A stretch of 62,815 nucleotides of DNA, counting the filler. It is 12 parts of 12 records of this genome, joined end to end, with 100 filler letters (N's around TTAATTAATTAA, not from the genome) between each part and the next. Parts side by side here need not be neighbours in the genome. Positions count along the whole stretch, not along the records: positions 53,177 to 56,465 come from SRR9670534_1591; 11 more parts are not named here. One strand, given 5' to 3'. Positions 3,201-56,872 of this stretch are shown piece after piece. The stretch's first letter is position 1, and every line of letters starts with the position of its first letter. The translations under genes were made by a program, and so were the position numbers. A model generated the notes under the pieces. It had not been told where the DNA came from. It saw only the letters and a list, made by a program, of their open reading frames with translations, and did not search any database.

Positions 3201-3600
3201 ACATGTAATAGTCAAATTGTTAATACGTACTACCAGAAGTTGTAGTTCCATGCTGGAATATTGATATAAAATATTGTGTATGCCCAAGCTCTTGTGTGTA
3301 ACTATCATTACTCCTCCCTTGCCATCTTGGCATATAACAGTAGATATATGATGTGATTGGGAGGAGTAATCATTCACCTCTTTCACCCAGCTTACTGTAA
3401 TACAGATTATATCCATAGTTGTCATCCATTCCTGTACTAAATAAAATTTACAGTTAACAGAGCATATGTTACTGTATTTACAGGTGACAAAATTCGACAA
3501 TTTCATACCTGTTATGGGATATTCAAGAAATTCTGCTTGTAGCCTGCTCATTTGGAGGTTGTAAAGAAATTTCATATTAAGCAAAGTCACATTCATCAGC
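201..3600 (-). mobile_element. Decayed APE-type LINE (CR1/L2/Jockey group): endonuclease + RT + 3' end
   Basis: Endonuclease motifs TGDFN, SIDWI and SDH (2844-3641). RT motifs YRPISIL, SLDSSKAFD, GAPQGSKLGP (~1585-1613), YAND in place of YADD (~1467-1478) and FKYLG. Several stops and frameshifts. On the minus strand it ends in AATAAA (216-221) followed by (TTA)5 (201-215). Confidence 0.9.
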
Positions 3601-3729
3601 CTACATAATGTCCTTGCACTTAGGCCTACATGCATTATCATTATATATTATTATTATCTTTTATATTATATTTATTATCTTTTATATTATCATATTATTA
3701 TTATCATTATCTTTTAGCATTATGCAACT

Positions 3730-4847
3730 TATAGGTGTGAAAAATAACATTAAATATAGGGTAGAATACGTAGACGATGCTCAGGAATTCTTATCAATTA
3801 TTTTAAATATAAATGGTATGGAATTTTTGGTGTACGTACTGTATAGACCTCCTAGTGTAAATTTTCAAGAGCATCAGCAACTTTTCGACTCAGTAACCCA
3901 CTCACTAAAATCCACAGGAAATTTTTTAAAATGCTTTCATAATGTTATTATTTGTGGGGATTTTAACATGAAGGAAATTTCCTGGTCGCTCCATAATTTT
4001 CCTGGTACAAAACCCCAAATTTTTAAAAATTTTTTAGATGAAAATTTATTAGAAAATATTCAAACTGAAATTACGAGAGAGGCATCAGTTTTAGATCTGT
4101 GTCTCACAACAAGACCAGATCTTGTTGATAATATTGAGGTCATAGCACAGGAATTGAAATCTGATCACTTAGCATTTATTGCAACCCTAAATTGCCCCAT
4201 TGATGTAAATCAGGTTATGAAAACGGTCCTAAGGTGGGATAAGGCAAACTGGCAACTAATTTATGATTTTTATGAAAATTTATTTAAAAATTTTTATTGG
4301 AATTCAGATGATATAACCACTCAAGAGGATGTTGATAATTTATGGGATAAAATACTAAACCTTGTGCAGGAGGGGATTAAATTGGAGATACCTACAGAAT
4401 ATGTGAAAAAGGGGTCGCCTAAGCGAAAACCTTGCAGTAGGAAGCTAAGATGCTTTAAAAATGAGAAAAATAGGGCTTTACGACTTTGGAAAAAGTGGAA
4501 TACCACTTCTTTATATAAGGCCTTGAAGAAAGCCTCCAAAAAAGTATGTAGACAGCTAAGGTGTGATAATATAGTTAGGGACTTGGGTTTTTTGGATTTA
4601 CTAACATTAAAACCTAAAAAATTTTGGAATTTTGTAAACTCTAAGAGATCTGAACAACAGGTATTACCCAACCTAGAGGGAAAGGATGGGAAAATGTTAA
4701 CGACAGATAGTGAGAAGTCGAACGCCTTCAACACTTTTTTTCAAAGTGTTTTCACTAAGATAGTGAAAAAGGATTTCCCTATGACAAAGGGATGTGAAGG
4801 GAAGGTACTGTTTACTCACTTTACTATGGAGGAATTGCAAACATCTA
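3730..4847 (+). mobile_element. CR1-like LINE ORF2 fragment (endonuclease C-half + linker), cut by the contig end
   Basis: Motifs YRPP, CGDFN, VLDLCLT, SDH, PKKFWNFV and FNTFFQSVFT. Clearly the same family as the element at 9592-11824. The N-terminus of the tracked ORF is only TTA-rich low-complexity sequence. Confidence 0.9.
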
Positions 4848-4947
4848 NNNNNNNNNNNNNNNNNNNNNNNNNNNNNNNNNNNNNNNNNNNNTTAATTAAT
4901 TAANNNNNNNNNNNNNNNNNNNNNNNNNNNNNNNNNNNNNNNNNNNN
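4848..4947. other. Artificial contig-joining spacer (44 N + TTAATTAATTAA + 44 N); first of 11 copies
   Basis: The identical 100-bp spacer, which has stops in all six frames, occurs at 4848-4947, 9492-9591, 11825-11924, 14563-14662, 22404-22503, 26673-26772, 33398-33497, 38905-39004, 41303-41402, 53077-53176 and 56466-56565. It divides the window into 12 contigs. Confidence 0.98.
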
Positions 4948-8545: not shown

Positions 8546-9591
8546 GCTGCTTTTTTGTTCAGGAATATTATTAAAAAAATACAAAGATGGAAGGCACAGC
8601 AGTAAGACCTGCAAAGGATCAGATTTATTGATTTATTGCTATTATAATGGCCCTATTATTCAGAGCAGCAATAATGTGTTATATATTATTATAATGCTTT
8701 GCCTTGCAGCCACAAATATTATTATATTGTATTATCACAATAGCAGCACATAGGCTTTAGCTATATGCAGTAATATAATAGGCTAATAATAACATTACAA
8801 TTCTTATTCCTGGCTAAAAACCCTTTCCTTATGGTAAGGGTAGTCAATTGGTTAAAAAACACTTATATGATAAGCATAAACAATTTTTTTGGCAAATTTT
8901 GATCAAAACAGCTTGTTGTTTTTATGAATGTTAATTAATATTAAATTGTTCCAAAAAATAACAAATATCACCCACAGGAATTTCCTGATTAATAATAATA
9001 ATCTGATCATCAGTTACCTTTATTATTATTAATAATAATGATAAAACTTTATAAGTAAACAACAATAGGAAAGAATGACCCAGTTCCTGGGGGTACAACT
9101 TGATATTTCTTAGGGGCTATTTTATATTAGTAAGATTAATAATAAAGACAACAAGCTCTTTTGAGAACTGCTGACAGCAAACCTTTTTGAAGACTGCCGA
9201 CAAAAAGACAACATATGTTTAACTTTAAAGTTGTAAAAATGTTACATTACTACACATAACAACATAACAAAAGAAGGATTATTATAAATAACAACAACAT
9301 GGTATTATTATTAATAACATATGTTTGCTTATCACTATTTATAAATTGTTGTGTTATCAAACGTTTCATGTCTAAATATATAGACATATAGACATATAAT
9401 AATGCTGTTATATTATTATGACGGCCTGTTGGTAGCTGGGCCATCATTATATGTACTATTGTCTGTAGCAGGAGAGGGCGTTGCTTAAATGNNNNNNNNN
9501 NNNNNNNNNNNNNNNNNNNNNNNNNNNNNNNNNNNTTAATTAATTAANNNNNNNNNNNNNNNNNNNNNNNNNNNNNNNNNNNNNNNNNNNN

Positions 9592-11824
9592 ATATCTGGC
9601 ATTTTCTGGCCAATATGGTGTGTGGTGGATGTGAAGTCTGGAAACCATGTGGTAAAGTCAGATCTACCTCGGTACAAACACAAACAGATGGCTGCTAACA
9701 ACCTTGATGAGAATGAAGATGACGTCACATTGGAAGATGCTTCCAAATACAACATCAATGTTGTTTCTAAAGGTGGTAGAAGACAAGCTACTCATTTACA
9801 AAGTCAAAGTAAGAATATTGTTTATAATTTTATAGATAATAATGCTGAAATGACTAAGAACATGCATAAATGAAAGTTCAAGGCATCATTTTGTTTAAAT
9901 TCTTTGTCAAGCCTTAATGTCTTCTGTATAAACGCCTGTAGTATCAACAACAAAGTAGATGATGTTGAAGAAGAGATTTTAAATGCACATGCACACATTT
10001 TTTGTATTACTGAAACCCATCTTGCCCCTGATATGAAATATGTTATTAAGGATTACATTATCACTCGTCATGATAGAAATAGAATTGGGGGGTATTTTAG
10101 TGGGGGTTCACAAATCACTTAACTTTTCTGTTGTGCACATTGATCCAACTTATGAATTTATGTCATTAATAATACATGGTGAACAATCAAAAATCCTGCT
10201 CTATAATGTTTATAGATCTCCTTCCCTAGGATCAAAATATGATAAGCATATTGACATGTTAAATTCAATAGAAAAGTCCCTAAATAACCATGGTAATTAT
10301 TTAGAGGAGTTTGATACAGTACTATTATGTGGGGATTTCAATATGCCTGGGGTGAGCTGGATGCAGATGAGTTTCCCTGGAAAATATCTGTTAGGGTTTA
10401 AGGGTTTTTTAGATTCATGTCTTTTGGAAAATACTCAATTTCAACCAATGCAGTATAATTCTGTATTAGACTTGTGTCTGACCACGAGGCCAGACACAAT
10501 CAATAATATTGAGGTAATTGCATCTAATATTAAGTCTGACCATTTACCTTTTTTGGTAAGTGTGCAATGGCTGGATAACATTGAAAAGAAAGTTACTTGG
10601 TTTAGAAATTGGAATAAAACCGATTGGGAGGGATTAAGAAAATTTTTTGACCAGAAATTTGAGAATTTTTCATGGGATAGGGAATCTATACAGTCAAATA
10701 CTGATATAGATAAGTTATGGGGTGATTTTTCAAAAATTTTAGAGAAGGGTATATCAAGATATGTTCCATTAACCAAACATAGGACTGGATTAAGTATACT
10801 TCCCTATAGGGAATGGAATAATTCTACAAAAATTAAACAACTCAAACATCTTCGAAATCGCAATTTGCGTAGATATCATAAGAATCCAAATAAAAATACC
10901 TTCAAACTTTTAACAGTATCATTGAAGGATGTGCATAGAGAATTTAGGCATCAGAAATTAAGGAAAGACTTCTTTATGCTTGATTGTTTTGCTTCTGAAC
11001 CGAAGCGTTTTTGGTCATATATAAATTCACATAGAGCAGAAGTGAGTATTATTCCAGAACTAAATGATGATGGGTTTAAATGTTCAACAAATCATGAAAA
11101 GGCATGCACCTTTAATGCGTTTTTTCAGAGCATCTTCACCTCTAATGTGAAGACAGAGTTCCCAGAAACTAAGCACTGTTCTGCTTTTAATCATACTGAC
11201 TTCACTATGGAAGAATTGTTTAAGACCCTAAATAAATTTAGTAATGGGACTGCCCCCAGAGAGGACGGATACAAGATTGAGCTTTTTAAAAACTCTGGAC
11301 TAAATTTTAAGATGAAATTTTTGAAATTTATTAATGATTCTTTCGTCCTAGATATGTACCCCTCAAAATGGTCTAGAAGTCAAATAACGCCAGTCTATAA
11401 AAAGGGTTATATATTTACTTTGGGAAATTATCACCCCATGGCCCTCACAGCTGTGGGGTCCAAAATTGCCGAGAGTCTTTTAGTATCTAGGCTGGAGTTG
11501 TTTTGGACTTCGCAGAAGTTCATAAACAGCTCTCAGCATTGATTTCTTAAATCTAAGGGAACTATAATGCAAATGCTCCAATTTACGAAATTGATATACA
11601 ATATATATGTGGTATACACAGACTTCCAGAAAGTGTTTGACACTGTGTCTCGCGATGCTCTGGAGGTCTTGTTGCCACGTGCAGATGTATCAGGTAGTGT
11701 TGCGAAATGGATAAGCGGTTTTTTAAGAAATAGAAGTCAAGTTGTAAAAGTTTGTGATGCAATTTCCCCTCCACTAGATGTCTTTTCAGGGGTCCCCCAG
11801 GGCTCAGTCCTGGGGCCCCTGTTA
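9592..11824 (+). mobile_element. Decayed CR1-like LINE ORF2 (endonuclease + RT N-half)
   Basis: Motifs INACS, CITETHL, YRSP, CGDFN, SDH, TPVYKKG, NYHPMALT, DFQKVFDTV and SGVPQGSVLGPLL. Frameshift near 10090, and TGA at 11540-11542 within the QHGF motif. Confidence 0.92.
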
Positions 11825-11943
11825 NNNNNNNNNNNNNNNNNNNNNNNNNNNNNNNNNNNNNNNNNNNNTTAATTAATTAANNNNNNNNNNNNNNNNNNNN
11901 NNNNNNNNNNNNNNNNNNNNNNNNCTGCTATCCCAACTCGCCC

Positions 11944-13934: not shown

Positions 13935-14995
13935 TATTATGGTATAATATCAATGAAAGCAAAATGAAAAATGTTAAATTTAAATCTTCCGCGTGTAAAG
14001 TGAATAAACAAAATGATGAGACAGGTTATGATAATGAATATTTAATAGTTTTATGTTTTGTTATGATACTATCATAAAAGGGCATTATGATGTTATCAAA
14101 AGACCAATTTTGGTGCCATCCAGTCTACAAATTTTTACCGTTAACAATGCCTATGCATGACGCAATGCCTATTATTATTAATAAAATGAAGTGCACATGG
14201 TGAACAGGCTGGCCTCATCAGGATTACATGATAGCCTGTTGGATTGTTATCAATGATACAGCAAAATCGATATTTTGCAAATATTGTTGCGCAATTTCGG
14301 CCAGTTGTATACATATAATGAAAATTTCATTATTGTTAAACACAACTCTGTAATCGATTGCGCAGGTGACCCCATTTATATGGAGGTTATATTGTTTATT
14401 GATAACATATTATTAGTTATAATTGCTTATTAATTAGTTATAATCGTTATTAATAATAAGTGGTATCGACCGTGCATTATTAATAATATATTATAGAGTT
14501 ACTAATAATTATTTAATACATAATAAATGTTCATTATTATTAATTATTAATAATGTTACATTNNNNNNNNNNNNNNNNNNNNNNNNNNNNNNNNNNNNNN
14601 NNNNNNTTAATTAATTAANNNNNNNNNNNNNNNNNNNNNNNNNNNNNNNNNNNNNNNNNNNNTCAAGATATGTCATCTTGTCTGGTCACTTTGACTGTCC
14701 TTGTCAGGAACAGTCAAAAAAACATGAGTATTTTGCAAAAACTTATGGGACAAGCCAGTAGTACCAATTAATATTACTAGTAAAATTAAATACTTTAATC
14801 AAGTAAGCACATGCGACATCTTTAGCCAATTTATTCAGTAGATATAAATAAATATCACTTGCCTTTGTTCTGCTGCTAAGCTAGAACTGCAAAAACTATA
14901 TATGTATGGAAAGACACATCAATGCTTTTGCTGATTTATTATTGCTTTTTAGTGGTATAAATTTATTGTAACAAATTTTGAGAGTTCTCTCACTA

Positions 14996-22403: not shown

Positions 22404-22588
22404 NNNNNNNNNNNNNNNNNNNNNNNNNNNNNNNNNNNNNNNNNNNNTTAATTAATTAANNNNNNNNNNNNNNNNNNNNNNNNNNNNNNNNNNNNNNNNN
22501 NNNACACAACTTACTTGACGCACTGTACTACTGCAACACAGGCTGAATTATCGAGGTATTTTAACATTTGATTTTAGATTCTTACTTC

Positions 22589-26452: not shown

Positions 26453-27208
26453 GTAAGTCTTTCATTTTTATACCTTTTTATCAATATTATGAATTAAGTC
26501 AATTTTACACACTAACAGCTCATAGGCAAGCGCTTAAAGTTTGAGTCTTTCACTGCTTTAGTAACGTAGATGTACTGTAGATTAGGGGGCTCAAAAAATG
26601 AAAAGTTTTATTTTTAAGATGTGAATCCCTTCAAGGGATTCCCTTGTCAATATTGAGCTGCTCTTTACGAAANNNNNNNNNNNNNNNNNNNNNNNNNNNN
26701 NNNNNNNNNNNNNNNNTTAATTAATTAANNNNNNNNNNNNNNNNNNNNNNNNNNNNNNNNNNNNNNNNNNNNTTGCTCAACTTATGTTGAATACTACTGT
26801 ACATACACTACTTAGTAGGTACATACTATGTATGCCATGGTATTAGGCCTGCCTGCCCCAGTAAGTAAGTAGTGTCTATAGGGTACGCATAACTACCTAC
26901 ATCCCTACTTAGTAGGCCTACTGTACCTGCTTGGTATTACCTACCCTACTTACTCCATTCCTAGTAGGAATTTCCTACATTTGTAGTACAAATTTTGTAC
27001 GCTGTTGTACCATACTTATAATAATAAAATGCCTACCTAGGTAGGTAATACCAAATCTCTCTATAGCAACGTTGCTATAGAGAGCCTTGGTAATGCACAA
27101 CGGTAGTACCGTTACGGTACCATCGGTATGTAATGTGCTGCATAGGAAACTCCTATTATAATACCTACTTGGTAAGTAGTACTTACCAAATGGTTGTAAA
27201 CTAGACAA

Positions 27209-33397: not shown

Positions 33398-35506
33398 NNN
33401 NNNNNNNNNNNNNNNNNNNNNNNNNNNNNNNNNNNNNNNNNTTAATTAATTAANNNNNNNNNNNNNNNNNNNNNNNNNNNNNNNNNNNNNNNNNNNNTGT
33501 GCATCTGAATTCTCCAAAAAATTTTTTATGAAGCACCCTGCTGTATATACTACAGGGCCTGTTATACATTCAGCATTAGAATTTCACATTGCAACGTCAT
33601 TGTAGGCCTATAGGACCTGTAGTATAGGTATTTCAAAGTTATTAATCAAAATGAGAGCCACAATTCTGATCTAAATGTTTAAAAGAAATTAAGAGGTTAT
33701 TATTAAGCCCTTACAATCGAAAAAATTGTTATAAAAAATAGTAAGGTTTTGTTCGTTGTGAAATAGTAGAAAGTTTACAATATAGGTTAATTGGCGCGAA
33801 AATCTTTATAATAAATTATAGAATTGGAACGACTTTAGAACGACCATCATCTCTGAAAGATCCTAGTCGCTAGTCATCTCACCCAATTTTCTAAGCTGTG
33901 TTCATATACAAATCTGTGAAAGAGAAAGATGCATCTTCTCGAAAACTGCACCATAGGAGAAAAATGGATTTCATTTTTTAAATGCACATAGCAAATTAAC
34001 AGTTTCTCAACAAGAGCTAAGACACTACAAAACATAATAAAAGATGTCTATATTTTCTTATATATTATTATTGATTTTTCAAAAACAAAAATGCTTTTCA
34101 GTGATTGCAAATATGTACTTAGCAGTAGTAGTAGCATCTGTTATGTATGTATTGCAATAAATGTATGCTATATCCAGGCTATTTCATTATCTACCAAGAA
34201 ATCAGCCGTAAAAAAGAGCATCACGTGCAGACACGCCCACGCTAAATTATGCATTTATCTAACTGACATCTTTCCTTGATTTTTTACAAGAACAAACTTG
34301 TTCAATTTATGTCATGTGTAATTGAAAATAAATGTTGCATATACCATAGGGAAATGGAAATTGCGCGAGATACATTGCTGAGGGACCTGTATCCTAGAGT
34401 TGACATAAATGCACCATATAATTGCCCCTATTGCAAAAGTAACCTCATGAAAAAGTCATTTATAACTTGCAAAATCAATACATCCCCAACATAATTACCT
34501 TTTAAGTTAAGTTGATTAAAAAAATATGTTGCTGTCAGTAAATAAATATAAACAAAGTCATTTTTCATTTCTGTAATGACATATTTGGTTATTATTACTA
34601 TTATTAATGAAAAACAAAGCCATATGGTTAATAATAATAATAACCTTGCCCAGTTCAAAAATTCTGTTTTGCAATTATTGTAAATTACAAATTTTAAATT
34701 ATTAACTAACGGGGTAGCTAATTGCTGGGTATGATAAAGCGATTTGGCCTCATTATGATAAAAGGGGCATTCTTTGTTAGCAATCGGGCAAAGGCTCTTC
34801 GCCACAACCACCCCACGCACAAATGTCAATCAATGATGATTTAATAATATCCTTTAGATTTTAGCAACAACAACAATCAAAAATATCTAAAAATAACCTT
34901 TTAGTAATAAATGAAATGATTGACGAAATAACAAGTCCTCAGACAGCGTTTAATGTTAATTTCGTAAGACAGTGACAATATTGTTGTTGCCACCACCTGT
35001 ATATTAGCTTTATTAGATTTGACAGTTATCATAATTGCAAAATTGTTTTCCCAGAATTTAATATTGCTGCTGCAAATTTGAAGGATCCTTGGAAGAAACC
35101 AATATATGTATATGGGCTGTTTGCTCTTCTTATAAATTATTTATTGCTTGCTCATCCGTGTTGATTCCCTGGCTGGAGATCAACTTCTTCTCGTCAAGTA
35201 ACATTATTAATAATAATAAAATGTGTTCAATTTTCTCTCCTTTATTATTATCCATCATATGACTCAAAATTATTGATTTATCAAATGGGCATCAGTCATT
35301 ATGACAAGCTTAAGATGTTCCACCAATCAGAGTGTAGTATTACATGATGACGTCACGACCAAGTATAGTTATATTGAAAATTTGACTTGACTACGTCACT
35401 TTTACCATAATTATGCTTGACTATTAATGGTAATACTATTTCATTCATTAATGGTAATTTTTCTTTTACCAGTAGATAAACTTTTGTATCTACTACCATA
35501 AAAAAG

Positions 35507-38793: not shown

Positions 38794-39130
38794 GTGAGTT
38801 CCTAATCATTTATCAGAAATACATAGGCTAGTGTACTAATAGTAATAATAATAGTGTTGTATAATATATAGTATCAGTATGGTATATTAACAGTAATATG
38901 TTCANNNNNNNNNNNNNNNNNNNNNNNNNNNNNNNNNNNNNNNNNNNNTTAATTAATTAANNNNNNNNNNNNNNNNNNNNNNNNNNNNNNNNNNNNNNNN
39001 NNNNGCGATGTCAAAGTACTTTGACTTGGCGGATGCTAATAATAATATGTAAAGTCTTTGTTGGTGTTGTTTTTTTAATTAATTGATTGCGTGCTTCAAT
39101 ATTTTGTATGGATTTTTTTTAACACTGTAG

Positions 39131-40750: not shown

Positions 40751-41811
40751 ATATTATTGTACTATAGATACAAATATTATGAAATCTGTAGTACCTATAT
40801 ACTAAATTACACTATGCACTATAGCAATGCTACTATATTATTGCGTATAGCCCAATGTGTACTATTTGTTGTAATACTATGGTATAATAATATTTGTTAT
40901 AATACTATAGTATATGGATGTTGCAATTGTATAGTATAATATCATTTATGTAATACCATAGCATAGCATAGTACCATGGTATAATACATCGTACGTTATA
41001 GTTATAACGATAATGTATTATAATACACCTTAATTAATTTCAATACAGCAAAGTAGTTATTATTGTTAATACGCAAGTACAACGTACTACATATATGAGA
41101 GTACGTAATAGATATACTATATAATTGCAGCTCGACGTACATAAATAGTATGTACTATCCGTACTACGTATGTATTATCCTGTACGTATTGCATATTACC
41201 GTAATAGCTTTTAATATAGGTACATCTCAGATCTGTGTAATATCTGTATTATAGGTATATTACATTTACGTATTACGTATTACAATACGTGTGATACATT
41301 TANNNNNNNNNNNNNNNNNNNNNNNNNNNNNNNNNNNNNNNNNNNNTTAATTAATTAANNNNNNNNNNNNNNNNNNNNNNNNNNNNNNNNNNNNNNNNNN
41401 NNGTACAAAGATACTTTTATTAATTAATTATAGTATACTTTTATTAATTAATTTAATTATAATTATACTACAATTAAATGTATTTCCGAAAGATTCTTAT
41501 TTTCATTAATAAATTGAGGGTACATTATTAATAATATGCATATAGTATATAGTATATTTAATAATATACTGTTGTTATAGTACCTCTAAATTATCATGTA
41601 ATATTTTCATAAAATTTTTAATAATTATTAATAAGGTTAACGTTTCAGGCAAATTATGGAAGTGGTGGCAAAAGTTAAGGGTAGAAATTCAGCAGATCTT
41701 TCCAAGATAATTTACCAGAACACCTTAAGATTATTTAAGACTATCATAAAATAATCTGCTTATATTTTAGGATCGATACTATGAATATTTGCATTTTAGT
41801 TACACTGCTAA

Positions 41812-43541
41812 ATGTTTAAAAAATCTAGCACTGTTGCTGATTATTATTTGACAAGAGCAAATGAATTTCTTTCTGGAAAAAAGCAAAGTGAAAAACCTAA
41901 ACCTAAAAAGACTTTGACCCAAACAACACCGATAGCCAAGAGTAGAAGCTTTGCAAATAGATTGTCTGATGATGATGGATCTGACGATGAACAGCTAATC
42001 GATGTAATTATAATTACTATAGTGGTTATAAGCACAATTTTATAAAATAGGACCTATTTTACTAAATGCATTTATAGGCATTTTTAAATAAGCTTAATCA
42101 AAAATCTGAGAAAGCTGGGAAAGCTTCTGACAACCTTGCTTTGTCTTCTTCAGATGAAGAGCCTTTTGTCATTAAGAAATCATCAAGCACCAGATTTCTT
42201 AAAAAGAACAAAACTCTAACAACACAAACCAAAGAATCAGAGGAAACTTCATCACACATAAGAAGTCCTCAAGAAGTTGAGACTGAATATGTAAAACATA
42301 CCGAAGTTGAAAAGGATATTGTACAGAATTCTGCAGAAACTGATGTATCATTGAGCCAGAACTCTGACCATTTTGAAGTTATTGATGATGATTACGAATC
42401 ATCATCAAGTCACAATGAAGACATGGAAGTAGAAGAAAGGCAGAAATGTGATCCAAAGGAAGAAAGCACTGATGCAGCAGCATCTCCAGTTGCCTTAGAC
42501 TTAAATTTGTTAGATACCAGTAATTTGGTGAATGAATACGAAAAACTTATTGAAAAGGAAGACGAAAAAGAACCATCTGATGATCGTGCTACGTCCGATA
42601 GTTCTCTATCGAATAGAAAACCTGTTATTTTCACTATTTCTTCATTGGAAAATACAGAAGATAAATCCATCCAAAAATCAGTAGGCTACACAGATGATGA
42701 GGCTGATAATTCGACTTCTTATGTTAGTGATTTTATGGAGGTTTTAGAGGAAAAAATAGTGGATTCTCCAGTAGAACAAGAGCCCGAAGTAGCGTCAAGT
42801 GATTCAGAAAGAACATCTGAACATTCTTCTTCGGCACAAACAGAAGCTGAAAAAGATGTGATTGATGAAGCTGATAAATCCCAAGTAACGACTATCAGTG
42901 AAAGTGATACCAATACAGAATCATACTACTCTGACTTTGTTCCTGCGGATAGTAAGCACAGTTCATTATTAATAGAAAGTGATACCAAGAAAAGTTCGGA
43001 AATGAAAACTATAGTTCGAAAATCATCCCAGGACGATAAAATTGTTGAAAAGTTAACTAAAAAATGCCAAACAAACCATAGCATTATTAGCACTGTTGCT
43101 CATAGCACTCAAACATCATTTCCAATAGCTAAAGAAGAATCTAACAATAATAATCAAGAAGAAACAGTTGTTTATCATTCTCAGCGAGATTTGGCTCCGT
43201 CCGTTTTTCCATTTCAACCTTCAATTCTTGTTGGTGATCCCCGTCCAGTTCTACCTATGTTTTTGCCAACAGATCTGCTTAAGAAGACACTTACTGCTAA
43301 TAATCCGAATATTGTCCTTATGAATGATTTTCTTAAACAGAATTTAAATTTATTTGAAGGACATATTAAAAATGTACAGCAAAAATACAAAGAATCTATT
43401 CAAAATGAAGAACCTGATCATAAGTATACTACTCTAGAGGATACTATGTCATACATTAGATCAACTAGAAATGAAAGACCAAAAGTTGATTTTGATAAAG
43501 AACTCAAAAGACAGAAGAAAAAACTTGGTCTGAAGAAGTGA
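41812..43541 (+). CDS. C19orf44-like (DUF4614) protein
   Basis: Exons 41812-42003 and 42078-43541. A long acidic Ser-rich region precedes LTANNPNIVLMNDFLKQNLNL...HKYTTLEDTMSYIR, which resembles the C19orf44 C-terminus as recalled. Confidence 0.75.
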
Positions 43542-46294: not shown

Positions 46295-48900
46295 TTAATT
46301 ACAATTTTTATCTGTATTCTTAGTATTTGGTAAACACATATTGTCACTTCTTATTATGTTATGAGTTAATTGGCTAACTTTTTTTTTTTTGGTTTTGGTA
46401 AATGATCTTGGCTTGCAAATTTTATGATTGGCATCTTTCAGTGCGACATCTTTTTTACCTGCATTTTTGTTAGCTCTAGCATCTTTTAGAGTGACATCTT
46501 TTTGATCATTAATTTTGTACATATTAATTTTACTAATTATTAATAAACACCAATCAAGCATTTTTATTACAGTGTTGTCAAGTAACTGCATTATTATCCC
46601 TAACATCCTTGATACATACTCCATATTATTATTTTCTGTACATTTTTCCTTAATGTTATTGTCCTTATAATCTTTATTATGCTTATTTATTATGGTAACC
46701 ATAATATGGTTTCATAAGAGTTATCATCAACACCATCATCTTTAGTAGTATCTCTTTGATCTATGAATGCTCCAATAATATTAGTAAAGAAACACTTTAA
46801 ATTAAAACATCTATTAACGTTACAGTATTGTAATAATTTATAGTATTTAATTAAATATAGAATAATCAATTGCATAACTGATTCATCCTGTGAATTTACC
46901 ATAAGTGTCAATAATAAGTCCACAAAACTAATGTAGCAGAAGATTTCCACTATTATATTCCTATTAAAGTATATATATTCAGCCCCATTAAGTAGGTATT
47001 GTGCAATCCCACTATTATTATCAATAAATAGTGGGTGAGAAATTGTTCCTATTAACATTAGTTCAATTTTAATTCTATTATTAAACTAGAACTTCCATTG
47101 ATTATATGCTACTATTGCAATATTTATCATCATAGCCCATAACATTAATAGGCCTAAGGTAAGAAAATTAATTTGGAATAAGTGTAAATATGGTAATAGG
47201 ATAATGGTCACTCCTATACCTACTTTTCCAAAATAATAATAGAAGTTGATTGAATTCTTATTCATTACATTACCAATAAGTAATTGTTTGATGATTTTCT
47301 TAATTAACTTTATAGGCCTATATGCATAAAAACTACTATCTACTATAGCTTTACATAAAGTTAAAATAAATTGTTCTCGATTGCCATCATGTAATAACAA
47401 ATTATCAAAGTATTGCATCTTTATTATTGAAATAATAGCAAATAGCAACAAACTATTAAACATCAATAAACTATGCATAACTAATGGCCTGTTGATAAAT
47501 TTATTAATATGCCTATTAACAATTAAATTTAACTTTCAGTTTAATACATTATTAATAATTAGTATAAGCTTATTGTGTGATTATTTAGTATTAGCATGAT
47601 GTACATTTTTCTCAATCAGATCTTCTTTCCTTAAGGGAAGGCTCACCATTAGCCACTGGTCTAGATGCTGGTCCAGCCTTTTGTGATTGTATTCTCTTAA
47701 GCACATTCTTTGTAAATTTGGCCATGCCTGTAAATCATATAAATGATCAATAATTATATTAAATTATATTTATATATTGGTTCAATTTGACTCTTACCAT
47801 ATGCTTGCATCAATTTCAATGAATCCATAGAATACTTAGCAGTCCATTGCTCAAAATCATAGTTACTGACTTTCTTGTTATTATCCATATTTCCTATTGT
47901 TGAATATGATAGATGTTCAGATCTATAACACAATATAGTATAATTGGTAATTGATAAACAATTTATTGTATTACCAATTATTAATCCCTTATAAACAATG
48001 GTAATCCTAGTTTGATCTATTATTTTATGACATATTGTCAATAACAACAATACTATTAATATCTGACATGTAAACTGCCCAACAAAATTGTATTATAAAG
48101 TTATGGCACCTAATTAATAACCATAAATAATAATTAATATGTGGAAATTCCACAACATAGCATATTTGCATAAACCTATGGGAAGAAAATTGTTGCCTTA
48201 TTAATGTATCATAGTTAAGCCCAAACAAAAAATGCCAATTAACAGCAAAAAAAAGATTATTTAGTATTGGGATTCTTATTTCAATCACCCAACATATTGC
48301 CTTGTCCATCAAAGAATCAGCCTTGAGAGCCACCACATAATCTGCATCCTCTGCCACCTCTTCCTCTACCATGATAAGAGGCAGAAACATTTCTGCCTTT
48401 TTTTCTATAAGATCAATAACAAAAATATTATTATTAATAGGCATTCTATGCATATATTAATTAAAATTATCAATTATTGATAAATTGAAAGTTATACTAT
48501 TATGTATTATATAATTATTATTGAAATGAAATATTAAATCTATTACTTCATGAATTTCAGAAAATTTTTCATTGTCTGAATTCTTGTAGTTACTATTCCT
48601 GTTGTACTTGAAGAGCTCAACACTAAAATCAATAGGAATAAAATATAAATCTATTTTAATTATCAATGTCAAATATATTCCTATAATATGCATTGATATC
48701 AGATGGTATTTATAACCTGATTGCTTATTACAATAATAATCGATTTTATTATCAGTATCTATCAATAGATTTGAATTATTATTATAATAATACAGATTAC
48801 CTACATTGCCAGGATTAATAGCCTCTAAAGGAACCACCAAAAAATTGAAAACTTCTGCTGCAATAGCAGCCCACAAGGTCTCCATTATCAAATTTGACCA
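46295..48900 (-). CDS. Possible multi-exon orphan gene, product unknown
   Basis: GC-richer exon-like islands lie in AT-rich DNA. Exons 47922-47798 and 47727-47647 join in frame through canonical sites (...FEQWTAKYSMDSLKLMQAY|GMAKFTKNVLKRIQSQK...). Other islands lie near 48300-48405, 48546-48623 and 48800-48890. No complete model could be built. Confidence 0.4.
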
Positions 48901-49543
48901 CTTTGTGTTACATGGCATGTATATTTGTATATATAAAGAGTTATCATGTATATTTGTATCCAATAAAGAGAAATATAATTACCTATCATTATGTCTTATA
49001 TCAACTGTATATTGAACAGGATTTGATGAATTTATCAGAATCTTGTATATTAAATAAGCATGATCTGGTACCACAGTAAATTGAAGATAGTCCAATACAT
49101 GTAAATCTATAGTGTCTATGATTTCTTTCACAAGTATGTATGTATCCATGTATATGATAATAATCTTTTATACAGTAAATACATTGTTGCATATTATCAT
49201 TTTTACATCTACCAAGTTAGAATTTTGGTATGTACAGTGGTTCTACCATACTGTACATTATATCTCACAATGGATAAGAACACTGATGGTCAAAGTACTG
49301 GTACCAAGTACAAAATTTTGCATCAGGGTCCTGTTACATCATGGAAAGTTGTCCCTGAAGGTACTACGAATTTCAGAGGTACTGCATCTCGTTTATTAGG
49401 TACTACTCCTTTTCATTTTTCGTCTCCAAATACAAATGTTAATTCTAACAATCGTATTGTCACTAATGTAAGTAATATTCTAATAATAATGATAACGATA
49501 ATGAAATGTTAAACTAACAAGGGCTACCAAATGTGTACGTACA

Positions 49544-52500
49544 ATGTTTACATGTATTGCAACCAAACAATCGTTTGGTAAAATATTTATGTTATTACTT
49601 TTGTATTTTTACTTTTATTCTCTCACATACAGTGAGTTTCAAAAAGGTTTTAAACCTTTTGACCACTTTTGGCTACTACCTTTGAATTATATTACTTCTG
49701 TACGATTTTTTGACATTTATTATGTTCATATTAATCGTAGTACAAACTCTGCTAGTATAATACCGCCTACACACAATGTGAGTGCACCATCTGTTAGTAA
49801 TTCTAGCAGATTATTGTCTGTAACCTCAGAGAGTGTTAGGAATTACAGTGATGCTTCCATTATTGATTATGATAATGATCTATACTACAGTAGACATGAT
49901 AGTTTTTATTATAAAGTTTCTCACAGTGAGCTTACCATTACAGACGACGATTTATTTCGATGTTTTTATTCCAACATTAATGGCCTAATGAAATATGCTT
50001 ATGATTTAGATTTAATGTTGGCTTCTGGGAGGTACAAAGCATACTTTTTCACTGAATCACATCTGAATGGTAATACTATGACTGGAACATTTTTGTCCAG
50101 AAATGACTATAGGTGCTACAGACAGGATAGATTAACATTCACCAAAGGTGGTAGAGCATGTATGATTGTGTTACGTGATATTAAAACCCTTTCTGTGAAG
50201 CATTTCCAGGAAGAAGCGCAACAGGGTTTTGAAATACTTGCTGTGGATTTTGTGTTTAATCATATTAAAATGCGGTTTATTTTAGTATACTTACCACTGA
50301 ATTTATCTTCAAAGACTGACACTGTCTCTTCTTTTGTTAGCATCCTACAAAAATACCTGAATGTATCTTATGAATATGTTATTATTGAAGACATTAACAT
50401 GTCTGATATCAAATGGGAATCTCTTACCTGTAAGAAAGTTCCATTTCGTATGTTCTTATCAATGTTCTCTTCTTATGGCTTTAATCAGAATGTGACCTTT
50501 CCTACTTACATATGTAAGCAGTCATTATTGGATGTAATATGTAGTACTTCTCCTATGCTTGAATGTAAAAATGTCCCTAATGTTCATAAGAATTGTGACC
50601 ACGTAGGAATAGAATTTTCATTTTTAGTTGATCATTTATATAATGCTTCAGAACCTATGTTATATAGGGACTATAGAAACGCTGATTTTAATGCTTTTAA
50701 TCTTGAACTGTCCAGTATTGACTGGAATGTTATTGCTAAAAAACACAATGTACATGAATTTTATGATATTTTGATGACTAACATCATAGCTCTTGTAGAA
50801 AAATATGTACCTCTTCAACATGTTCATGACAAAAACTTGTATCCTGAATGGCTTCTTAAATTATGTAGGAAAAAATGTCTTCTTTATCGTAGGATGAAAT
50901 CATGTGACCGTCCTTCTGATCATTCTAAATATGAAGAATTTAGTGATTATTATCATCAAGTTGTGTTAAACTATCATGAGAAAAAAGAAATGAAACTTAT
51001 CGAATGTAATAATTTTACTGATTTATACAGAAAAATGAAAGCTGCTACTAAACAATGGTGTCAAGGAGAAATCCTCACTAATGACACTGGTGAGTTTATC
51101 ATATCGAGATGTTACCCAGTGCTATAATGAGTATTTCTGCTCTGTATACCAAAAAGATGTCTCTAACTCCACCACCACTGTGAGTTCTTTAGCACCGAAT
51201 AATGTTCATTTAAATGATATTGATTTCAATGAATTCGATGTTTATGCTAGACTCAAATCTCTTGATTATAAAACATATCCCACCTCTGAAGGGGTATGTG
51301 CTGCTGTTTTTAAAAAAGCAGCTTCCAGCTTAGCTATTCCTTTGAATTTATTATATCATAAATTACTCAATGAGACATGTATACCTAGGCCCCTGTATTT
51401 AAAAACGGATGTAGTACTGATTGTAGTAATTATCGTCCGATAAGTCTCACTGCTATATCCTCCAAAGTTTTTGAATTTATTGTTGCTAATGCTCTTCGTA
51501 ATTATATTGTCGATAATAATACGATTTCTCTCTATCAATATGGTTTTTTAAAAGGTAGATCCATCTAGGCAAATCTTACTTTTTCCCAAAGTCATTGGTA
51601 TGATGCTATGAACAAGAAATTACCTACTTTAACTGCTTTTCTAGATATTAAAAAGGCATTCGACAGTATTGACCACTCTTTATTGATCCGTAAATTGCAA
51701 CAGCTTTATGCTGTTGAAGGAAAATTACTATGGTGGATTAGGGAGTGGTTAGCAGATCATGATCAAAAAGTTTTAGTATATGGTGTATGTTCTGATATAG
51801 GGCCAGTAACATCTGGTGTGGTCCAAGGATCCGTCCTTGGACCAGTCTTATTCATTATATATATTAATGATTTAATTGTTGAACTTTCATCTACTAAAGA
51901 CATTCATGTCTCAGCTTATGCTGATGACATGAAAGTCTGGTCTAGTGGCCCTAAATGTCATGAATCTTTACAATTAGCTATATTCAAAGTTTATGTTTGG
52001 ATGTATAGTTGGGGTTTATGTATCAACGTATCTAAGTCTGGTATTATGAATATGGGTACCATTATTGATAATTGTCCTCCTATTTTTTAGGGTAGTGAAG
52101 CTATGCCTTTTATTAATATCATCAAAGACCTGGGTATGTTAACGGATCCCAAATTGAATTTTGATACTAACCATAAATCTATTTTACAATGTAGTAATAT
52201 TAGATTACATCAGATGTTTTCTACTTTTAAAGGTAAAACTATGTGTATGTACAAATTTACTTATATACTTTACCTGAGGCTGCTTCTTGAAAATTGTTCT
52301 CCTTTGTGAAATCTTCTCTATGTTCATCGTAGTAAGGAATTAGAACGTATTCAAAAGAAATATTTTAGAATTGCATTTAGACTTTCTAAAACACAGCCTA
52401 TTTACCGCTATTCTGATGTTTGCAATGAGTATGAAATACAGTTCCTAGCTGAACGCAGATTACATGCTGATCTAAAATTATGTTTTAATATCCTTAATTC

Positions 52501-52804: not shown

Positions 52805-53182
52805 TACTTTATTATTATAGTATAGTACATAGTAGCATTTGTAATTAATTTTTATATGTTATTTTACATTTTCTAATCTGGTCTGTCAAGCTGTACCTTG
52901 GTCTTTCAGACTTCTGTTTTCAGTTTGGTAGTTCGGATGTTTTTCGTTGAATTTCCCAAAGCCTGAAATTCACAAAAAATGTTGGTGAAAGGTCATTATT
53001 GTATTTTAGCAACTTATACACTAAGTATGTTCTAATGATCTTATTTTCACCTGTTTCCATTGTTCTTTTCTATTGTNNNNNNNNNNNNNNNNNNNNNNNN
53101 NNNNNNNNNNNNNNNNNNNNTTAATTAATTAANNNNNNNNNNNNNNNNNNNNNNNNNNNNNNNNNNNNNNNNNNNNGTAAGT

Positions 53183-55366
53183 ATGGCTCATTCTAGGAAA
53201 TTACCTCCACATTGTACCATCTTAACAAGAAACACGGACTACTTGATCCAAAACTTGGATGTAAAGGTTCTGATACCAGAATTGCTTGCAAATGGTGTTA
53301 TTGATTCTGATCATGTTGATGTAATAAAGCAAGGTGAAACTGACAAAGCTCAAGTATTAGAACTAATTGAGCTAATAAAGTATGTTGAGGTCGAAAAATA
53401 TGACTTATTTTTAAAGGTTTTAGAAAAGAATGAGCTTTATGGTGATATTGCAAAGAAACTTGAAGATGATGCAAACAACAATCCTTGTCAAACTGAAGAT
53501 TGGCATTTTTGTGTAGACCAACTGAGCAATGAAATAGCAAGAAACTACAGTAATTTTGTTTCTGAACATAAAAAGTTTCTTATAGCTAGAAAGGTTATAC
53601 CAATTGCAGTACTATTAAAGATCCTAAATGACAAGGGTTTGACAGATTTTCAAAAAATTTTCAAGTTTTTTGAAGCTCTGAAAAGTGAAGGACAAGAAAA
53701 ATGGAAACAATTTCTGAAGTTGATGAAAGAACTTGGATCAGATTATGCCATCATAATTTCATCAGAATCCTTGAATAATATGATAGAAACTAACTATGCT
53801 GTCTTTGGAAAAGATGACATAATTTTGAGTTTTGAAGCTATTGGCTTTGGAGCAAATGCATCTGTTTATGAAGCACAAGTACCAATGATATCATCTGATG
53901 CTAGATTTGCATTCAAAAAGTACATACAATTATCACAGATGGAAGGAATAAATGCTGCTGGTTCTGAAAAATGTTTGAAAGAAATGAAAAATGAACTAAA
54001 AAAGTGTTTCCTCTGTAGAATGCACCCTAATATTGTCACCATCTATGGTATTGTTCAGGAACCTGGTTGCTATGGTATACTTATGGAGCTGTGTTCTGAA
54101 GGAAATATCAGAACTTTCATAGACAAACATGTTCTTGAAAAGATACCAATTGGTTTAGAAATGAAGAAAGATTGGATCCTGCAAATTCTCAGAGCCATAA
54201 ATTTCTTGCATACCAGAACTCCAATAATTATCCATAAGGACATTAAAACAGAGAATTGTCTTTTGACTTCCATGAATGTTGGAGATGTTTTGGTGGCCAA
54301 ATTAGGAGATTTTGGAGCTTCAGCTTTTAGCTTATTAACCAAGACAGTAACCAAATCTAGACCTAATCAAGTAACAATAACTCATTGCCCACCAGAATAT
54401 TTAAAATATGGTGAAATCAGCCCTGCTTATGATATGTATAGCTTTGGTATATTCATTTATGAAATTCTTAGTGAAGAAGTACCATACAAGGAATGGGCAG
54501 ATGATAATATAGTACAGTTCAAGAAAATTTTGGATGGTGAAGTACCAAAGATTCCTAAAGTCAGTGACTTTGATGAAACATTTGAAAAGATGTATTTCAA
54601 ACTGACATCAAAAGATGCCAATGAGCGTCCTACTGCCACCGCAATACTTTTAGAATTGAATGATTTACCGCCAGAAAATCCACCATCTGCAATTTCATAT
54701 GAGGTTGTGAAGCAGGATGCTGAAGATGCTTGGGTTCATGGTCCACTTGTTGTTTTAAAAAATCATAAAATAATTGTTAGAAGTTCATATAAAGTTCATT
54801 GGAATGGTACAATTGAAGTCTTGCTGACCCAGATATACTCTGAAAGTAGTGTGAGAAATATACCAAAATGGCGCCTTTTTAACAGAGATACCAAAAGATG
54901 TCTTGCAAATGGTGTGGCTACAAATCATCCTAGAGAAAGTTTTTTCACGGATCCCAAATGGGTGGGGTTAAGGTTGGAACTCCAAATCCATGCAGAAGCT
55001 GATGTCATACCAAGCTGGTCATTTCAAAATGAAGTTACATTTATTTGGGATAAAAATGAGCACCAACATAAGCATAATGGGTGGAATTTCCGCGTTTATG
55101 AGCAAGCTGGTTGGATGGGAATAGAATTGGCTTCTCAAGATATCCAAGATTATAATACCTATGCTTGGTATGTGAAAATGAAAAGTTTGGACGATAATGT
55201 TTGTCCAGATGCATTTAGACAAGATGTTGGAAAGGGTAGAATGGGGTCATATTTCTTTGTTCCTAGTGATTTAGTGCTTGAAAAGTACTTTATTTGCTCT
55301 GAAACAAAAGAAATTAGGTTTGAATATGGAACAAAAGCAATGACCGAAATTTTTGATACGAAATGA
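53183..55366 (+). CDS. CARD-CARD + TKL (RIPK/IRAK-like) kinase + MATH/TRAF-like C-terminal region, 727 aa, intronless
   Basis: aa ~8-95 is an Apaf-1-type CARD (LIQNLDV..LIPELLANGVI..YDLFLKVL..YGDIAKKLE). aa ~105-190 is a second, weaker CARD-like unit. The kinase at aa ~215-492 has GFGANA, FAFK, HPNIV, HKDIKTENCLL, DFG, PPE, DMYSFG and RPT. aa ~615-720 (GWNFRVYE..WMGIEL..GSYFFVP..YF) is MATH-like. AATAAA at 55447-55452. Confidence 0.88.
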   Translation: MAHSRKLPPHCTILTRNTDYLIQNLDVKVLIPELLANGVIDSDHVDVIKQGETDKAQVLELIELIKYVEVEKYDLFLKVLEKNELYGDIAKKLEDDANNNPCQTEDWHFCVDQLSNEIARNYSNFVSEHKKFLIARKVIPIAVLLKILNDKGLTDFQKIFKFFEALKSEGQEKWKQFLKLMKELGSDYAIIISSESLNNMIETNYAVFGKDDIILSFEAIGFGANASVYEAQVPMISSDARFAFKKYIQLSQMEGINAAGSEKCLKEMKNELKKCFLCRMHPNIVTIYGIVQEPGCYGILMELCSEGNIRTFIDKHVLEKIPIGLEMKKDWILQILRAINFLHTRTPIIIHKDIKTENCLLTSMNVGDVLVAKLGDFGASAFSLLTKTVTKSRPNQVTITHCPPEYLKYGEISPAYDMYSFGIFIYEILSEEVPYKEWADDNIVQFKKILDGEVPKIPKVSDFDETFEKMYFKLTSKDANERPTATAILLELNDLPPENPPSAISYEVVKQDAEDAWVHGPLVVLKNHKIIVRSSYKVHWNGTIEVLLTQIYSESSVRNIPKWRLFNRDTKRCLANGVATNHPRESFFTDPKWVGLRLELQIHAEADVIPSWSFQNEVTFIWDKNEHQHKHNGWNFRVYEQAGWMGIELASQDIQDYNTYAWYVKMKSLDDNVCPDAFRQDVGKGRMGSYFFVPSDLVLEKYFICSETKEIRFEYGTKAMTEIFDTK

Positions 55367-56420
55367 ATGTTTCATTTTATATGTCATTTCTCCTATTTAA
55401 CTCTGGTATTTATTATTAATCGGAAATTTAAAATCGGAACGTCTGTAATAAAGGTTAATTCTTATTGTTTTTATATTGGAAAATTTAAATTAAAAATTCA
55501 AATCCCTTAAATTTTTAATCTTTAAATTTAAATCCACAAATATGGATTTAAATTCTACATTCTAAATATGAATTTTAAAATTTTTCAATTTAATAAACTT
55601 TTATCAAAATAATAATAGGATTTTTATTATTGTCATAACGTACCTGACAGGTAAAACTTGACAACAATAATATTACACCATTGTATTTGCATATAGTATA
55701 GACTAATAGGTTTTGTTATTACTTTTAATTAATAGGGCTGGAATCTTACTTACCTCTGAATTAAATTATTGATAATAATAGGCTTTCACTAATTGTTTAC
55801 CTTTGCTCTTATTATTAATATTAATTAATTGTGTTGTAGTTAGAAAAAGATTCCCCTACAAACAATACAATTATTTATTACATCCAAACGAAATAATATA
55901 GGACTAAACTGAATGACAATATGAACGAGGTAAGCAACATGTTCTCTACGTTGTTATTATTAGTAATAGTAACATCATTTTCATAACTTTTAATAAATAC
56001 AAACTTATTAAACATTTCATTATGCCATTATTAATAAAAATCTTGTACATTACTATTAAATAGCAACAGATAAATTGCTAAAAAATAAACTATTATTAAT
56101 AAATATTTTTATTAATAAAATTTATAGTTATTATTAACACCGTGTGACATATGTGACACATGTTTTTATTGATTATATATTAATAATCATAATTAGTTTT
56201 ATGAATCATAAATTATGATAATAAAACTCTATACATGAAATATTATTAAAAATTGATAATTTGTAAAATGGACATTACATATTGGTCATAAAGCGGCAAA
56301 TGCTAATCTAACAAAAAAGGGGTCACTTATCATTTTCGTAGAATTTCTCCGTTTATATATAAACATATACTATGTAGTACAATAGCATTATGAAATCATG
56401 AATAGTATAATTATTATATT

Positions 56421-56465
56421 ATAATATAATAGTAATATTATAGTATAATATTACTATTATATTAT
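56421..56465. repeat. Perfect 22-bp inverted repeat with a 1-nt spacer at a contig end
   Basis: ATAATATAATAGTAATATTATA-G-TATAATATTACTATTATATTAT. Confidence 0.9.
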
Positions 56466-56872
56466 NNNNNNNNNNNNNNNNNNNNNNNNNNNNNNNNNNN
56501 NNNNNNNNNTTAATTAATTAANNNNNNNNNNNNNNNNNNNNNNNNNNNNNNNNNNNNNNNNNNNNCAAGAGATGGCGCACTCACACTCTACAATACAAAG
56601 TATTGTTATTAATAATAATAATAGAAAATGTAACTTGGGTTTGCATTACTAGTATAGGCTATTGGATTTTGAACTAGAATACATAGAAATAGTTAATATA
56701 AACATTTGCTGTTAGACTGTGTCTATAACTGTAGAAAAGTAATAAACTTAGCATCAAAAAACAGCTGGTTGATTGTAATTCATGAGTGACATTACATAGT
56801 TAATGGAGTTTAAAAGAAATAATAAAAAGAAAAAGATAAAACAAGTTATTTTGTATAGGCTGAGAGGAGGAG

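Follow-up and report, generated by a model that had tools for sequence, protein, structure and literature searches.

What kind of protein is encoded by the long open reading frame (ORF) on contig SRR9670534_1591, and does it join in a single chain the signalling parts that vertebrates divide between RIPK2 or IRAK and the TRAFs? The contig belongs to a window of 62,815 nucleotides in which 12 contigs (2.2–11.7 kb) are joined by 11 identical 100-bp linkers, each made of 44 N, TTAATTAATTAA and a further 44 N. The predicted protein of 727 residues begins with a CARD, continues with what appears to be a decayed second CARD and a TKL-type, non-RD kinase and ends in a β-rich tail (Table 1). We favour, at about an even chance, the reading that it is the product of a lineage-specific signalling kinase gene, cytosolic, in an AT-rich animal. 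From the same modules, an initial annotation of this DNA had inferred a "one-chain signalosome", and several of its individual claims are taken up below.

An intact open frame on a small contig

The 727-residue frame is real coding sequence. At the composition of the contig, a stop codon is expected with a probability of 0.086 per codon, so that 727 open codons would arise by chance with a probability of 4.9e-29, and over the same span the other five frames hold 27–84 stops each. The open frame described in the initial annotation is thus borne out from ATG to stop. The predicted gene appears intact and intronless over its visible part, and it is known from the sequence of one small contig alone. 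Because the window concatenates separate contigs, gene order across the linker points is unsafe to use, and the ORF contig itself is the sole real genomic context. On that contig, the ORF is followed by 1.1 kb of non-coding, AT-rich DNA, and its flanks are unique within the window except for AT-rich simple sequence at the 3′ end of the contig.

The relative synonymous codon usage of the ORF correlates well with that of other genes in the window (r = 0.84 for the DUF4614 exon and 0.72–0.74 for two ORFs of long interspersed nuclear element (LINE) type), and the GC content of the contig resembles that of the other contigs. A foreign origin is therefore unlikely. From the CARD, DUF4614, pentaxin and LINE content together, we infer that the host is an AT-rich metazoan.

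At its 5′ side the contig ends only 6 nucleotides before the ATG, with the reading frame open through both codons to the edge. These six nucleotides are GTAAGT and lack the terminal AG expected of a splice acceptor; the ATG itself has an A at −3 and a G at +4. The position of the edge puts the true N terminus, the label "intronless in an intron-rich genome", retroposition and any neighbouring genes beyond the reach of the sequence. Retroposition, which the initial annotation had put forward, finds no support in the marks of a processed retrocopy: the contig 3′ of the stop contains no A-run of at least eight and no poly-A tract, and the 5′ flank that would hold a target-site duplication is cut off by the contig edge.

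The N-terminal CARD and its probable decayed copy

The first domain of the protein, CARD 1, passes the Pfam gathering cutoff for PF00619, confirming the clear N-terminal CARD of the initial annotation. The match covers positions 3–83 of the 85 in the profile and rises to 31.6 bits when residues 1–210 are scanned alone. It begins at residue 13 with profile position 3, as is expected of an N-terminal CARD. Pfam lists CARD, and no Death domain, for the whole protein and, at E ≤10, for residues 1–210. In a sequence search of the PDB, the nearest solved chains to CARD 1 are the CARDs of NOD1, which make up six of the nine matches at weak expectation values (E 0.056–0.15).

CARD 1 is followed by a second helical unit that is related to it by internal duplication. 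Residues 151–199 of this unit 2 (53633..53779) align in register with residues 50–100 of CARD 1 at 31% identity (BLASTP E 4e-5). The Smith–Waterman score between the two units is 58, against 27.6 ± 5.0 for shuffled sequences, and was reached by one of 2000 shuffles; the CARD units score just 20–30 when compared with five other protein segments. When both units are combined in a two-row profile, the match to the NOD1 CARD improves from E 0.056 to 0.012 and the CARDs of NLRC4 are newly added, with eight of the nine matches being CARDs. About 11 residues of the helix-3 region are missing from unit 2 when it is aligned with MAFFT. A full-length AlphaFold single-sequence model shows helices throughout residues 9–183, with a predicted local distance difference test score (pLDDT) of 34, an unfolded kinase and an unreliable topology. 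Judged by these alignments, unit 2 appears to be a degenerate internal duplicate of CARD 1, much more decayed than CARD 1 itself.

A TKL-like, non-RD kinase

The central part of the protein matches the protein kinase family PF00069 with 129 bits against a cutoff of 31.7. The catalytic lysine, the catalytic aspartate and the DFG motif are all in place (K245, D353 and residues 376–378), as the initial annotation had proposed, and the kinase is classed as non-RD since HKD stands where HRD would be found. With the full set of catalytic residues kept, the kinase is apparently catalytically active.

Among solved kinases, the best-scoring relatives are DLK (80.7 bits), ZAK (79), WNK1 (69.6), RIPK2 (66.9), MLK1 (66.1) and IRAK1 (63). 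By these scores the domain stands at least as near to MLK-type kinases as to RIPK or IRAK, and we assign it on sequence similarity as TKL-like without a clear subfamily and as not specifically RIPK- or IRAK-like. From the αC helix onward, its motifs are in register with those of DLK/MAP3K12. The alignments to solved kinases start only near αC (residue 61 of a piece taken from residue 205), indicating that the N-lobe is divergent.

Search for relatives of the whole protein

We searched the whole protein against a collection of 5.8 billion clusters with a word-index method that scored 7999 candidates among proteins of 399–1273 residues. There were 427 matches at E ≤0.001, all of them through the kinase and at no more than 33% identity; none of the 120 matches listed has a CARD or MATH Pfam domain, and neither the protein itself nor a close relative is present in this collection within that length range. 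An exhaustive phmmer search of 1.84 billion representatives returned 120,613 matches at E ≤0.001, the best 150 of which all lie within residues 190–521 with identities of no more than 38%. Ten of these best 150 were scanned with Pfam. All ten carry at least two kinase stretches, and it is to these multiple kinase domains that their high scores are due; a CARD, Death or MATH domain is found in none of the ten. When 270 proteins were fetched and compared with residues 1–210 and 500–727, none matched either region, the best value being E 0.015 at 9.6 bits.

The metagenome and viral contig collections contain no related locus, the other 11 contigs of the window contain no paralogous fragment of the ORF, and no Rfam family is found in the window. 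No full-length relative of the 727-residue protein was thus found in any protein, metagenome or viral collection searched. The literature search, which covered main texts, likewise found no description of a CARD-CARD-kinase-MATH protein. The initial annotation had called this architecture unfamiliar, and these searches agree with it.

The C-terminal tail

The kinase is followed by a tail of about 230 residues. The initial annotation described it as β-rich, and a tail-only AlphaFold model agrees at low confidence: mean pLDDT is 42, and about eight strands are predicted in residues ~612–713, in part with pLDDT 50–61. That annotation had also raised the idea of two MATH-like copies within the tail. 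The two halves of the tail give no BLASTP alignment with one another at E ≤100, and their Smith–Waterman score (z = 0.0) is reached by 941 of 2000 shuffles; a second degenerate copy at residues ~510–610 is therefore unsupported.

For the distal part of the tail, the strands predicted in that model and two further observations point weakly to a MATH/TRAF-C-like domain. In an ESM-Atlas feature search, the best neighbours of residues 497–727 are solely MATH clusters (0.84, 174–175 shared features). When the query is narrowed to residues 590–727, the top scores climb to 0.91 and 0.90, values in a range (at least 0.9) that 4–10% of shuffled proteins also reach and that is uncalibrated for parts of proteins, and the shared-feature counts of 166 and 161 lie under the 170 mark. 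Within the two top MATH sets of this narrower search, 24 of 30 matches are at or above 0.9, and the families shown are MATH_2, MATH, CYHR1_TRAF_C and TRAF-mep_MATH (0.87–0.91); in the top clusters, only 29–36% of members bear Pfam MATH_2. Measured against the calibration of the tool itself, this neighbourhood is a lead only. The second observation is a short motif, DAFRQDV, which lies 52 residues from the C terminus; in the passages of PMC13482392 that describe a human TRAF2 TRAF-C construct, DAFRPDV lies 57 residues from the end. Of 3000 simulations, 19 produced a window with six of seven residues identical by chance (~0.006, for the tail composition against a 192-residue comparator), and the match was spotted post hoc and compared by eye only. 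We lean towards the view that the last ~140 residues, 590–727, form a very divergent β-sandwich of the MATH/TRAF-C type.

The distal tail also resembles the bacterial Pfam family DUF928 below its cutoff, at 55007–55186 (residues ~609–668), with E 0.005–0.012 and 16–17 bits against a cutoff of 26. The match recurs in six overlapping tail pieces, one of which is shorter and gives 11.6 bits and E 0.24. DUF928 (E 0.005–0.24 overall) and DUF5884, which both fall below the Pfam cutoff in residues ~597–668, were treated as noise.

Points against the favoured reading and alternative explanations

A number of results weigh against the reading of the locus as an intact gene for a CARD-CARD-kinase protein with a MATH-like tail, beginning with the calibration of the Atlas scores and the post hoc origin of the motif match. 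Models of the Pfam MATH clan (PF00917, PF22486 and PF21355) match none of three tail pieces and ten sub-windows at E ≤10, and in these pieces and sub-windows no Pfam family reaches its cutoff. A phmmer search of the tail against 177,635 distinct solved sequences, expected to include TRAF/MATH chains, has no match at E ≤10. At the other end of the protein, Pfam lists no CARD for unit 2 alone and none of its nine matches in the PDB sequence search is a CARD, so that the second CARD-like unit of the initial annotation stands by its in-register similarity to CARD 1 and goes unseen when searched alone. The N terminus of the ORF may be truncated by the contig edge, and no orthologue or paralogue that could show purifying selection was found. 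The same tail results speak for an alternative in which the tail is not MATH and is instead an unrelated, lineage-specific β-sandwich or two small β domains; the protein would then be a TKL kinase recruited through its CARD, functionally analogous to RIPK2 or IRAK and lacking a module of the TRAF type. This alternative draws further support from fold searches, which return sandwiches of the Ig/FN3, adaptin-ear and CBM types below the noise level and no MATH chain among the rows shown. It is also in line with two word-index searches that found no tail relatives, one with residues 497–727 against proteins of 399–1273 residues (E ≤0.1) and one with residues 590–727 against proteins of 243–2000 residues (E ≤10). 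The fold searches, however, used the pLDDT-42 tail model as query and so exclude no fold, the Atlas families shown are all MATH/TRAF-C with a score that climbs on narrowing to residues 590–727, and six of the seven residues of the TRAF2 motif recur at a matching distance from the C terminus. We consider a tail of another fold to be a serious, if rather unlikely, alternative. The initial annotation's claim of a MATH/TRAF-like stretch in the last ~100 residues keeps the Atlas neighbours and one short motif on its side and goes unconfirmed by the Pfam, PDB sequence and fold searches.

The remaining alternatives concern the gene rather than the fold of its tail. The ORF could be the large 3′-terminal exon of a longer gene that continues upstream past the contig edge, in exons encoding further N-terminal modules. 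This is what a contig start 6 nucleotides before the ATG and a frame open to the edge would allow, and other ORFs of the window resemble exons of split genes, the ion-channel frame containing no ATG-initiated ORF of at least 250 residues and the DUF4614 frame only a partial one. Such an exon is improbable given that CARD profile position 3 falls at residue 13, as in an N-terminal CARD, that positions −3 and +4 around the ATG are A and G, and that the preceding GTAAGT has no terminal AG. Slightly less probable still than a 3′-terminal exon is a young non-functional copy in which stops have not yet gathered, for example a retrocopy or an unexpressed ORF of recent shuffling. The absence of an intron across 2.2 kb, of a close relative of 399–1273 residues in the 5.8-billion-cluster collection and of a paralogue on the other 11 contigs would fit such a copy, in a genome rich in LINE debris; 727 open codons at the stop probability given above, the retention of all catalytic kinase residues and the lack of poly-A after the ORF speak against it, and a unit 2 far more decayed than CARD 1 points to long coding evolution and not to a fresh copy. 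A contig foreign to the animal, for example a contaminant or part of a symbiont or large DNA virus, would explain why a single intronless ORF without relatives sits on a small isolated contig. We regard this as very improbable, as codon usage (r = 0.84 with the DUF4614 exon) and GC content fit the other contigs, the 1.1 kb of non-coding, AT-rich DNA after the ORF is unlike a densely coding virus, and the viral contig collection holds no related locus.

Other features of the window

The remaining contigs carry several further open frames (Table 1). The frame matching Ion_trans is probably an internal exon, as it contains no ATG-initiated ORF of at least 250 residues. The frame with the pentaxin domain, a further module of immune type, may be one exon of a gene for a pentraxin-like lectin. 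On four contigs, we observed decayed pieces of non-long-terminal-repeat (non-LTR) retrotransposons, in which ORFs for an Exo_endo_phos_2 endonuclease and an RVT_1 reverse transcriptase are broken by stops; the LINE-type ORFs at 49505..52090 are not neighbours of the 727-residue ORF, because they lie on a different contig. Two runs of minus-strand frames look like decayed long ORFs, possibly of mobile-element origin, and seven frames scanned from these runs gave no Pfam match.

Table 1. Positions of the features described in the text, counted along the whole window
Feature	Window position	Strand	Residues	Details
ORF contig, 3,289 bp	53177..56465	+		sole real genomic context; GC 0.298
ORF, ATG to stop (stop included)	53183..55366	+	1–727	727 residues
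CARD 1	53219..53464	+	13–94	Pfam PF00619, 28.0 bits vs cutoff 23.9, E 2.2e-6
Unit 2, helical	53483..53797	+	101–205	apparent degenerate CARD duplicate
Protein kinase, TKL-like, non-RD	53834..54649	+	218–489	PF00069, E 2.8e-37
Gly-loop			221–229	GFGANASVY
Catalytic Lys and αC Glu			245, 271	K245; E271 (within KNELKK)
Catalytic loop			351–358	HKDIKTEN; catalytic D353, N358; HKD replaces HRD
DFG			376–378	D376
PPE and DMYSFG			403–405, 417–422	
Proximal tail	54671..54949	+	497–589	no assigned family; strands predicted, pLDDT 32–45
Distal tail	54950..55363	+	590–727	candidate MATH/TRAF-C-like, β-rich
DAFRQDV motif	55208..55228	+	676–682	
First AATAAA after stop	55447..55452	+		81 nucleotides downstream; weak evidence in AT-rich DNA
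Linker between previous contig and ORF contig	53077..53176	none		one of 11 identical linkers
Linker closing ORF contig	56466..56565	none		
Linkers 1–6	4848–4947, 9492–9591, 11825–11924, 14563–14662, 22404–22503, 26673–26772	none		
Linkers 7–11	33398–33497, 38905–39004, 41303–41402, 53077–53176, 56466–56565	none		
Non-LTR retrotransposon pieces	49505–52090, 3581–4847, 10037–11542	+		
Non-LTR retrotransposon piece	1614–2045	-		
Ion_trans frame, 412 residues	39079–40317	+		voltage-gated-type cation channel; E 9e-26
DUF4614 open frame	42078–43541	+		E 1.7e-14; codon usage closest to CARD-kinase ORF
Pentaxin-domain open frame, 183 residues	6795–7346	-		E 6e-8
Ribosomal L7Ae/L30e/S12e/Gadd45-family open frame, 182 residues	27200–27748	+		E 1.7e-20
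Consecutive open frames, 130–330 residues	56873–62246, 46295–48978	-		single stops between

Proposed mechanism and significance

By analogy with RIPK2, we propose that the CARD of the protein would dock homotypically on an activated upstream CARD protein, which may be a sensor of the NLR or Apaf-1 type or a CARD caspase. In the passages cited, RIPK2 binds NOD1/2 CARD to CARD (PMC9573974) and the RIP2 CARD forms filaments (PMC11747288). Clustering of this kind would gather the kinase domains, and trans-autophosphorylation would then activate the non-RD kinase. The tail, in turn, could act as a peptide-docking module that chooses substrates or downstream partners, on the model of the TRAF2 MATH domain, which the cited part of PMC8195603 describes as a docking domain leading to JNK/NF-kB. 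Recruitment, catalysis and docking would in this scheme reside in one chain, and in vertebrates they are split between RIPK2 or IRAK and TRAFs. What the sequence establishes is the ORF, CARD 1, the kinase with its motifs and the internal duplication; the tail fold, each step of binding and the pathway are inferences.

A stronger form of this proposal is that the protein is a natural "Rosetta-stone" fusion in which a CARD, a non-RD kinase of the RIPK/IRAK type and a TRAF-C-type MATH docking domain, which the NOD and Toll pathways of vertebrates keep on separate proteins, share one polypeptide. We hold this form tentatively, at well below an even chance. Provided that the gene is expressed and its tail is truly of the TRAF-C type, CARD recruitment, kinase activation and TRAF-type docking are physically linked, three innate-immune steps that are normally inferred from interaction data; fusions are classical evidence that the parts cooperate. 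The CARD-kinase-TRAF axis would then already be a functional unit in this invertebrate lineage. As a minimal single-chain signalosome amenable to study on its own, the protein would also be a compact system in which to model kinase activation by induced proximity, and it would extend CARD-plus-kinase proteins beyond the vertebrate RIPK2; the combination of CARD and kinase is confined to vertebrates in one survey, as far as the cited passages of PMC9573974 go. Should the tail not be MATH, the locus would be one more lineage-specific death-fold/kinase shuffle, relevant to the immune repertoire of that animal.

Comparison with known systems

Like the protein studied here, RIPK2 (RIP2/RICK/CARDIAK) combines a TKL-type kinase with a CARD used for homotypic recruitment by CARD sensors, as described in the cited passages of PMC9573974. 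The order of the domains differs, however, in that RIPK2 has its kinase first and its CARD at the C terminus, whereas here the CARD (residues 13–94) precedes the kinase (residues 218–489), and a second, degenerate CARD and a β tail of ~230 residues are added. The kinase itself is no closer to RIPK2 (66.9 bits) than to DLK, ZAK or WNK. Identity with RIPK2 was rejected on account of the reversed domain order.

In IRAK/Pelle proteins, as in this one, a death-fold domain precedes a TKL kinase, and IRAK1 is among the solved kinases matched. Kinases of the IRAK/Pelle family are non-RD and act upstream of TRAF6. The protein here differs in having a CARD (PF00619) instead of a Death domain (PF00531), which led us to reject identity with IRAK, and in its tail. 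The highest-scoring solved kinases come from MLK-family MAP3Ks (DLK/MAP3K12 at 80.7 bits, ZAK/MAP3K20 at 79 and MLK1 at 66.1), whose C-lobe motifs are in register with ours; the N-lobe is divergent, and Pfam finds none of the accessory modules of that family (leucine zipper, SH3, SAM). Two CARD-derived units in tandem at the N terminus are reminiscent of NOD2 and RIG-I/MDA5, although in our protein the CARDs are followed by a kinase and not by a NACHT or helicase domain, and its second unit is far more decayed.

With the TRAF-C/MATH domains of TRAF1–6, SPOP, USP7 and meprin, the distal tail shares its Atlas neighbours, the DAFRQDV/DAFRPDV motif and a predicted all-β composition. It differs from them in having neither a Pfam match nor a phmmer match to any solved chain, and, judged by eye, the candidate domain seems to fall short of canonical TRAF-C length. 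At E ≤1, Pfam lists no RING, TRAF zinc finger or coiled coil for the protein, and identity with a TRAF was rejected on these grounds.

The closest parallels in kind are the death-fold/kinase shuffles of invertebrates, in which immune-type adaptor domains have been recombined with TKL kinases in single lineages. The cited passages describe RIPK2-like proteins of the LRR-Death-Kinase and Kinase-Death forms in lancelets (PMC11747288, PMC9573974) and the gene NG3 of a sea anemone, which joins kinase, Death and TIR domains (PMC5094078). The main-text passages describe no CARD-CARD-kinase protein with a MATH-like or other β tail among these shuffles. Because such shuffles are described in lancelets and sea anemones, proteins of this general kind are already known, and we regard the CARD-CARD-kinase architecture with its β tail as a new member among them, unusual but not unprecedented.

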